The notes below the pieces were generated by a model. The model saw only the letters and a program-made list of their open reading frames with translations, did not search any database and was not told where the DNA came from. A program made the position numbers and the translations under genes. Positions 88 to 1,140 of a stretch of DNA of 1,140 bases are shown here, one piece after another (position 1 is the first letter of the stretch; every line of letters begins with the position of its first letter). Source of the DNA: a phage; the sequence record OR846308.1; one strand, 5' to 3'.

Positions 88-285
88 TCACCGGTTCTGT
101 TGCAGAAGCTGCAGTTGGCGCAGGGTACGGACATCTTCCCTGACCTGTTCGATACAGGGCAACAATGCTGCCGAATCCGTTTTATCCTCATCGTTGTCGA
201 AGATAATTCCGGATTCGCTGTCGATATTGTCCTGCAGCCACGCAATCAGAATATCCAGTGCTGTTTCCGTGGTTAATGATTTCAT
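88..285 (-). CDS. Small acidic hypothetical protein, ~65 aa (possibly DUF957-like); alternative upstream start at 330 would give 80 aa
   Basis: Minus-strand ORF with stop TGA at 90..88. Preferred start is ATG 285..283, preceded by AGGAA (294..290) and lying 11 nt after the YeeW-like stop. The ATG at 330..328 has no visible SD and would overlap the upstream gene by 34 nt. Product MKSLTTETALDILIAWLQDNIDSESGIIFDNDEDKTDSAALLPCIEQVREDVRTLRQLQLLQQNR has about 13 acidic and 6 basic residues. Amino-acid composition looks protein-like, unlike the alternative-frame ORFs. DUF957 assignment is from memory and tentative. Confidence 0.6.
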   Translation of the reverse strand: MKSLTTETALDILIAWLQDNIDSESGIIFDNDEDKTDSAALLPCIEQVREDVRTLRQLQLLQQNR

Positions 286-296: not shown

Positions 297-788
297 TTAC
301 CAGTCGAAAGTGGGTAAACCCGGCAGGCATTCAGCGCTGGCATCCAGATGAATGAGACTGACGCCATAACGCCGGATGAGTGTGACGACCAGACGACGGA
401 ACGTTTTTGACAGACCCAGGCGTTTAAGCCGCAGAACCGGGTACGACCACGCATCGGTACGCAACAGATAGCCGTTACCGGTAAAATGAATCCATTCTGA
501 TTCACCGAAGTCACTGGTCTGGTGTGACAGCGAGTACAGCCAGGCGTTGTCCGTTTCCGTGATATGTGCGGTACTGCAGCGTATGCCGGTAAGGGCAGTA
601 AATGGTGGCGTGCAGTCTGCTGAGGTCCGGTCAGATTCATCAACAACACGAAGGGAGTAGCCGTTATCGCAGACCATGTTAATCAGTTCAGCGAGCTCAA
701 TACCATCAATGTCAACGACAATTCGCCCCATGTTCAGTGCCTGTACGTTAACGCTGTCGGCTTCCAGTGTCAGGGCCAGTTTCATCAT
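297..788 (-). CDS. yeeW: YeeW-like hypothetical protein, 163 aa, function unknown
   Basis: Uninterrupted 163-codon minus-strand ORF, ATG at 788..786 (second in-frame ATG at 785..783), stop TAA at 299..297. The start overlaps the toxin stop (ATGA). A GGAGG Shine-Dalgarno (797..793 on the minus strand) lies 4 nt before the first ATG and 7 nt before the second. Position directly downstream of the toxin and the N-terminus [26 protein letters not shown] match my recollection of YeeW-family proteins; recollection only. Confidence 0.75.
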
Positions 789-797
789 TTCGCCTCC
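783..797 (-). promoter_or_regulatory. Ribosome-binding site and ATGA stop/start overlap coupling the toxin gene to the YeeW-like gene
   Basis: Minus-strand sequence GGAGGCGAAATGATGAAA: GGAGG sits inside the last toxin codons, and the toxin TGA (787..785) overlaps the downstream ATG (788..786). Confidence 0.6.
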
Positions 798-1140
798 GGA
801 TACTTACCCAGGGTAATGTTATTTACCGTTCTGTAATTGTCGCGGGTCATCAGGCCGGTCGCCCTGCGAGCCCGGAGGATATCGATGCTGTTTATTAACT
901 GAGAGCGGGTACAGGCGCTGAATCCCGGCTGGTCGGTACGCACCAGCACGTATTTTTCCACGAGAAAGTTCACCGCATCACACAGTGAAATACCTGCCTC
1001 AATATGCTGCTCAATCACACGTTCATCAGCGAACGGTGTGTCATTCAGCGTGAGGCCGTAGTGCTGGTCCAGCAGACGGCCAAGCAGTGTCTGCCAGATG
1101 GTGACGGGAGACGGGCAGCGAGATACCTCCCGTACATGTG
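785..1140 (-). CDS. cbtA: CbtA/YeeV-family type IV toxin (cytoskeleton-binding toxin targeting FtsZ/MreB), C-terminal part; 5' end lies beyond the window (frame-aligned codon begins at 1138), stop TGA at 787..785
   Basis: The minus-strand frame is open from the window edge to the TGA at 787..785. It translates to ...[117 protein letters not shown]. From memory this is near-identical to E. coli CbtA-family toxins (YeeV, and most like YpjF); no alignment was run. The listed 77-aa ORF (785..1018) is only the stretch after an internal Met. A full-length protein of about 124 aa would start roughly 20 nt past the window end. Confidence 0.88.

Follow-up and report, generated by a model that had tools for sequence, protein, structure and literature searches.

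The 1,140-nucleotide stretch of phage DNA analyzed here (sequence record OR846308.1), referred to below as the window, ends within an open reading frame located on its minus strand. This locus raises the question of whether the truncated frame represents the major part of an intact toxin gene of the CbtA family or the remnant of one, whether the toxin is accompanied by its antitoxin, and which of the two cytoskeletal targets of the K-12 prototype would be recognized by this particular allele.

Reading Frame of the Toxin Gene

Translation of the minus strand between positions 785 and 1138 yields an open frame of 117 codons, followed by a TGA stop at 787–785. The frame begins at position 1138 and runs off the edge of the window, with nucleotides 1139 and 1140 completing the codon before it. 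An initial annotation, made from the sequence alone, had described a gene cut by the window edge and spanning 785–1140. The frame is indeed open at the edge and that span is correct to within two bases, with 1139–1140 belonging to the codon that precedes the frame, whereas the 118 translated amino acids mentioned there are in fact 117 residues plus the stop codon. The other two minus-strand frames of this region are full of stops, and the plus strand of 785–1140 contains no long frame. Since the toxin frame is open at the edge, the listing of open reading frames includes for this region only an internal piece of 77 residues that starts with GTG (785–1018).

The part of the gene located beyond the window could be reconstructed from its relatives. 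The annotated homolog from O157:H7 is 375 nucleotides long, and the last 354 of these are present in the window. In all 19 public loci that contain the exact bases 1100–1140 (18 metagenome contigs and one viral or prophage contig), the ATG of the toxin is found exactly seven codons upstream of the position corresponding to the window edge, with the intervening codons encoding MKTLSDT, so that the predicted length of the toxin is 124 residues, of which residues 8–124, as well as the stop codon, are encoded by the window. The initial annotation had anticipated approximately seven missing codons, a number with which the start of the Pfam match at profile position 8 also agrees. An exact scan of the species-representative genomes did not find the 41-mer comprising bases 1100–1140.

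Open reading frames are also present on the plus strand (for example, 74–355 and 767–898), but were taken to be shadows of the minus-strand frames, which have Pfam matches and low dN/dS ratios. Additionally, terminator-like matches located inside coding sequence, at 928–947 on the plus strand and 989–969 on the minus strand, score slightly above the expectation from shuffled sequences.

Family Membership and Selection

The toxin fragment scores 194.1 bits (E = 6.2e-58) against the Pfam family PF06755 (CbtA_toxin), for which the cut-off is 25, and the match covers profile positions 8–112 of 112. A search of 5.8 billion proteins yielded 2932 homologs at E <= 1e-10, of which nearly all belong to Escherichia and some to Klebsiella, Citrobacter, and Enterobacter. 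Many of these homologs go by the name CbtA, YeeV, or "TA system toxin CbtA family protein". Among the K-12 paralogs, the sequences of which were taken from NC_000913.3, the identity is 91% to CbtA, 61% to YpjF, and 58% to YkfI, with no gaps inside the CbtA body. Assignment to the CbtA family, as made in the initial annotation, is borne out both by the profile match and by the gap-free alignment.

The dN/dS ratios of the toxin, calculated against nine distinct gap-free homologs, are in the range 0.07–0.17. Taken together with the open frame and the family match, these values indicate that purifying selection acts on this coding sequence, which is not a decayed remnant. In comparison with 55 full-length cluster representatives of the family, only Val12, Gly27, and Val71 are rare, all three of them located in variable columns, and none of the invariant columns is substituted. 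Residues 8–27 belong to the type that is commoner among natural alleles. We consider it nearly certain that an intact toxin gene of the CbtA family is present here, with the last 117 of its 124 codons located at positions 785–1138 of the minus strand. Such genes occur in several copies in Escherichia and Shigella, where they are carried by P4-like cryptic prophages and by integrative islands.

Other resources contributed little to this assignment. None of the three proteins of the window matched NCBIfam, and the matches to PHROGs were weak and limited to families of unknown function. Searches of PADLOC yielded no match for the proteins of the window, and therefore the module is not a catalogued defence system. 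In a sequence search of the PDB, no protein related to the toxin was found among the solved structures.

Downstream Genes and the Probable End of the Operon

The toxin gene is directly followed on the minus strand by a complete gene (297–788) encoding a YeeW-like DUF5983 protein of 163 residues, which matches Pfam PF25638 (1.7e-31) and PF19419 (1.7e-22) and carries the name "DUF5983 family protein" in the E. coli records that match the window. Its dN/dS ratios are 0.14–0.32. The stop codon of the toxin and the start codon of this gene overlap in the sequence ATGA at 788–785, and a GGAGG motif resembling a Shine–Dalgarno sequence can be read inside the 3′ end of the toxin gene (793–797, minus strand), positioned 4 and 7 nucleotides before two ATG codons of the DUF5983 gene. 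Judging from this overlap and the motif, translation of the DUF5983 gene is probably coupled to that of the toxin. That a DUF5983 gene accompanies CbtA on its downstream side has been noted earlier (PMC10790755; bioRxiv 10.64898/2026.06.09.728211).

The second downstream frame (88–285, minus strand) encodes 65 residues, begins 11 nucleotides after the stop codon of the DUF5983 gene, and has the sequence AGGA preceding its start. Homologs of this protein are annotated by RefSeq as DUF957 domain-containing proteins, and comparison with 12 of them results in dN/dS ratios of 0.10–0.32. No match to it was found in the 2025 copy of Pfam, in NCBIfam, PHROGs, or PADLOC, with only weak PHROGs matches present across the proteins of the window. 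A preprint from 2026 makes the case that the AntiFam entry ANF00264 is a real protein linked to cbtA (bioRxiv 10.64898/2026.06.09.728211), and the frame found here may be an instance of that entry.

A terminator scan and RNA folding identified a hairpin resembling an intrinsic terminator at 34–60 on the minus strand, with an 11-bp stem followed by the U-rich run UUUUCGUUU. The folding energy of this hairpin (60–34) is −20.8 kcal/mol (z = −4.9), and none of 200 shuffled sequences folds as well; it probably marks the end of the operon. No RNA family from Rfam was found on either strand of the window.

Gene Order and Distribution of the Module

The window corresponds to the 3′ end of a conserved module with the gene order DUF932–antirestriction–RadC/JAB–DUF987–cbeA–cbtA–DUF5983–DUF957. 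The downstream half of the order characteristic of CP4-44, namely cbtA–DUF5983–DUF957–terminator, is present in it. This arrangement is the standard one for P4-like cryptic prophages and islands, known from CP4-44 in K-12 as well as from many pathogenicity islands. The full order DUF987–cbeA–cbtA–DUF5983–DUF957 was found in loci L005, L007, L009 (with the contig ending inside the DUF987 gene), L010, L015, L016–L034, and L035, whereas the shorter succession of toxin, DUF5983, and DUF957 genes occurs in at least 25 loci, recurs in essentially every related locus, and is also annotated in E. coli records. CbtA-type copies are present in 4894 of the 5426 complete E. coli genomes (~90%), with a median of three and up to 11 copies per genome.

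The same module, from DUF987 to DUF957, is found in a 43-kb sequence catalogued as viral in IMG/VR (IMGVR_UViG_2778261064_000026, locus L034), which is consistent with the origin of the module in P4-like prophages. In turn, nearly identical cbeA–cbtA sequences of the E. coli type are located on very short contigs assigned to Arthrobacter sp. GMC3 (L013, a contig of 679 nucleotides), to a metagenome-assembled genome of Lachnospiraceae (L009), and to one of Segatella copri (L014). Their presence in unrelated phyla most likely results from contamination or mis-binning.

The family is among the best-sampled toxins of E. coli, is routinely annotated in RefSeq, and has a mechanism that is characterized in K-12. 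The toxin gene is of an already known kind with nothing new about it, and finding one more copy is of little consequence.

The Expected Upstream Antitoxin

The initial annotation expected a cognate antitoxin gene of the CbeA/YeeU family just upstream of the toxin, beyond position 1140. The start codon and the promoter of the toxin gene likewise fall outside the window. A full-length CbeA/YeeU homolog is located upstream of the toxin in 28 of the 29 related loci that include enough upstream DNA. It is present in 10 of the 11 loci in the first set of relatives, where it ends ~90–135 nucleotides before the match, as well as in 18 of the 19 loci in which the terminal 41-mer occurs, with the antitoxin of the remaining one (L028) cut by the end of the contig. 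The sole exception is the copy in O157:H7 (L001, 7249–8626, NZ_AP018488.1) that lies beside LEE and the tRNA-Sec gene selC. In this copy, an insertion of ISEc31 has removed all but the last ~55 codons of YeeU, whereas the genes of the toxin, DUF5983, and DUF957 are intact, and the junction between ISEc31 and the YeeU gene is found in 271 complete genomes. Since this very copy is the closest relative of the window over its whole length, the expectation of an upstream antitoxin is likely to be correct but is not safe.

The source copy might thus have lost its antitoxin to an insertion sequence in the same manner as in O157:H7, in which case the toxin gene would be either silent, with its promoter cut off, or held in check in trans by the antitoxins of its paralogs. 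This explanation draws on the backbone of the window, which is identical to the O157:H7 LEE/selC copy over positions 1–263, 364–695, and 803–1104, with whole-window identity falling to 94.8% at the next-best match, as well as on the many genomes that share the ISEc31 junction. However, the last 36 bases of the window differ from the O157:H7 copy at four sites and are found exactly in the 19 loci mentioned above, every one of which has an antitoxin gene upstream (18 of them complete). With nearly all other related loci also carrying a full antitoxin, we consider such a loss unlikely, but far from negligible, and regard an intact antitoxin upstream of the toxin as likely on the basis of the related loci. 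Whichever applies to the window, its closest relative is a natural antitoxin-less "orphan" toxin of the CbtA family, bordering the LEE island.

We can speculate that the DUF5983 protein is a functional third partner in such modules, for example a second neutralizer or a modulator of the toxin. Such a role would explain why the genes of the toxin, DUF5983, and DUF957 stay intact in the O157:H7-type copy despite the destruction of CbeA by the insertion sequence, although we regard it as quite improbable.

A Mosaic Allele

The substitutions noticed in the initial annotation had led to the suggestion that the gene might be a distinct allele. Indeed, the best match among 5426 complete E. coli genomes is 98.1% identical over the window and 98.6% identical over the toxin gene, and the toxin differs from the nearest protein by three substitutions, A12V, I19V, and H120Y. 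The 22 nucleotide differences from the O157:H7 LEE/selC copy are located at 264–363 (13 differences), 696–732 (4), 802 (1), and 1105–1136 (4), with 21 of them thus falling into three short patches, each of which matches other paralogs. The patch at 264–363 corresponds to another paralog, such as the O157:H7 copy next to tRNA-Ser (99.3%), whereas the patch at 1105–1136 is found exactly in the 19 loci with the terminal 41-mer, none of which exceeds 96.1% identity over the whole window. The allele is therefore a patchwork, consisting of the backbone of the O157:H7 LEE/selC copy and three short patches of other paralogs. Such a pattern is a signature of either gene conversion between paralogs or chimeric assembly of short reads, and amounts in both cases to a recombination of known sequence.

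If the second of these processes were responsible, reads originating from several paralogs would have been merged into a chimeric contig, and the sequence would exist in no cell. The tight clustering of the differences in patches that match other paralogs, the presence of up to 11 copies in a single genome, and the failure to find the exact window sequence in the 5426 E. coli genomes, in the species representatives, or in the metagenome contigs containing the 41-mer, are all compatible with such an origin, as is the absence of the exact DUF5983 protein from an index of 153 billion genes. On the other hand, gene conversion between paralogs would yield the same pattern, all three reading frames are intact and in frame, and P4-like prophages have been described as pervasively mosaic (PMC5371832), which counts against an artefact. 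We consider an assembly artefact rather unlikely, and the allele illustrates the exchange of short patches between paralogous copies.

It is very improbable that the gene is a decaying pseudogene, left over in a cryptic prophage and devoid of remaining activity. In favor of this reading, the window contains only part of the gene, some relatives have frameshifted or split copies (L011, L012, L025, and L026, each found as two tblastn pieces), and yeeW, downstream in K-12, is a truncated remnant. Against it, the 117 codons seen here contain no stop and align without gaps to the functional CbtA of K-12, their dN/dS is low, the invariant columns of the family are preserved, with the rare Val12, Gly27, and Val71 confined to variable positions, and the genes downstream are of full length.

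Predicted Mechanism and Key Residues

CbtA from K-12 has two binding partners, namely FtsZ, which it contacts at the H6/H7 loop, and MreB, which it contacts at the flat face of the double protofilament. The two interactions are independent of each other and together stop both division and elongation (PMC5624674). The antitoxin CbeA makes no contact with the toxin and counteracts it by stabilizing its targets, which is the definition of a type IV system (PMC5371832). By homology to CbtA, YpjF, and YkfI from K-12, from which we infer the toxicity and targets of the window's gene, the small toxin encoded there would bind the same H6/H7 loop of FtsZ and the same double-filament face of MreB. Binding to these targets would block cell division and elongation, and overproduction of the toxin would result in lemon-shaped cells. 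Under normal conditions, the toxin would be offset by the CbeA/YeeU-family antitoxin expected upstream, acting on the cytoskeletal targets and not on the toxin itself, as in other type IV systems.

Two residues are of particular importance for target recognition. Substitution F65S abolishes the binding of FtsZ by CbtA, YpjF, and YkfI, whereas R15C abolishes the binding of MreB by K-12 CbtA; a cysteine at position 15 is natural in YpjF and YkfI (PMC5624674). Phe65 is present in the window's toxin within the segment AVNFLVEKY and is found in 53 of the 55 family representatives. The Arg15 of K-12 CbtA is, however, not retained, with Arg14-Cys15 occupying the place of Ser14-Arg15 (the codon for Cys15 is located at 1093–1095 on the minus strand). 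Cysteine is the majority state at this position, present in 31 of the 55 representatives, and its wide distribution in the family, including YpjF and YkfI, means that it has no bearing on family membership and concerns only the question of MreB behavior similar to that of the K-12 protein.

In view of the loss of MreB binding by the R15C variant, dual targeting is not assured for the allele in the window. Inhibition of MreB is still plausible, and YpjF and YkfI block elongation despite having Cys15. With Phe65 kept and Arg14-Cys15 in place, inhibition of FtsZ is the safer prediction of the two. Related to the proposal of a third partner made above, alleles that combine Cys15 with a CbtA-type body may inhibit FtsZ only, yielding filaments rather than lemon-shaped cells. 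Such alleles would allow the effect of R15C on MreB binding to be tested in a natural background.

Comparison with Known Systems

The closest known counterpart is the O157:H7 copy (WP_000854712.1) located at LEE and the tRNA-Sec gene selC. The two toxins share 114 of the 117 visible residues (97%), and at the DNA level the gene is 98.6% and the whole window 98.1% identical. Both include the rare Gly27 and Val71, and the downstream DUF5983 and DUF957 genes, as well as the flank, are alike. In addition to the three amino acid substitutions listed above, the copies differ by 17 more bases outside of the toxin gene, grouped in patches. The antitoxin belonging to the O157:H7 copy is truncated by the insertion sequence.

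Comparison with CbtA from K-12 (YeeV, located in CP4-44 together with its antitoxin CbeA/YeeU) reveals an almost complete identity of residues 28–124, with A71V being the only exception, and with Phe65 and the C-terminal sequence GKYPEAK conserved in both. In K-12, too, the toxin is followed by a yeeW/DUF5983-type gene the start of which overlaps the stop codon of the toxin, although yeeW in K-12 is truncated to 64 codons, whereas the DUF5983 gene in the window has its full length of 163 codons. The toxins differ in residues 8–27 (PGQAASSRPSPVEIWQILLS in K-12 CbtA), a region that includes Arg15 in K-12 and Cys15 in the window.

The remaining K-12 pairs, YpjF/YfjZ from CP4-57 and YkfI/YafW from CP4-6, are more distant. 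Their toxins belong to the same Pfam family and include both Cys15 and Phe65. Experiments have demonstrated toxicity and FtsZ binding for the two of them, as well as binding of MreB by YpjF (PMC5624674, PMC5371832). At 61% and 58% identity, YpjF and YkfI are shorter (109 and 113 residues, respectively) and do not have the C-terminal tail that is present in the window's toxin, and the spacer between antitoxin and toxin comprises 20 nucleotides in these pairs rather than ~88.
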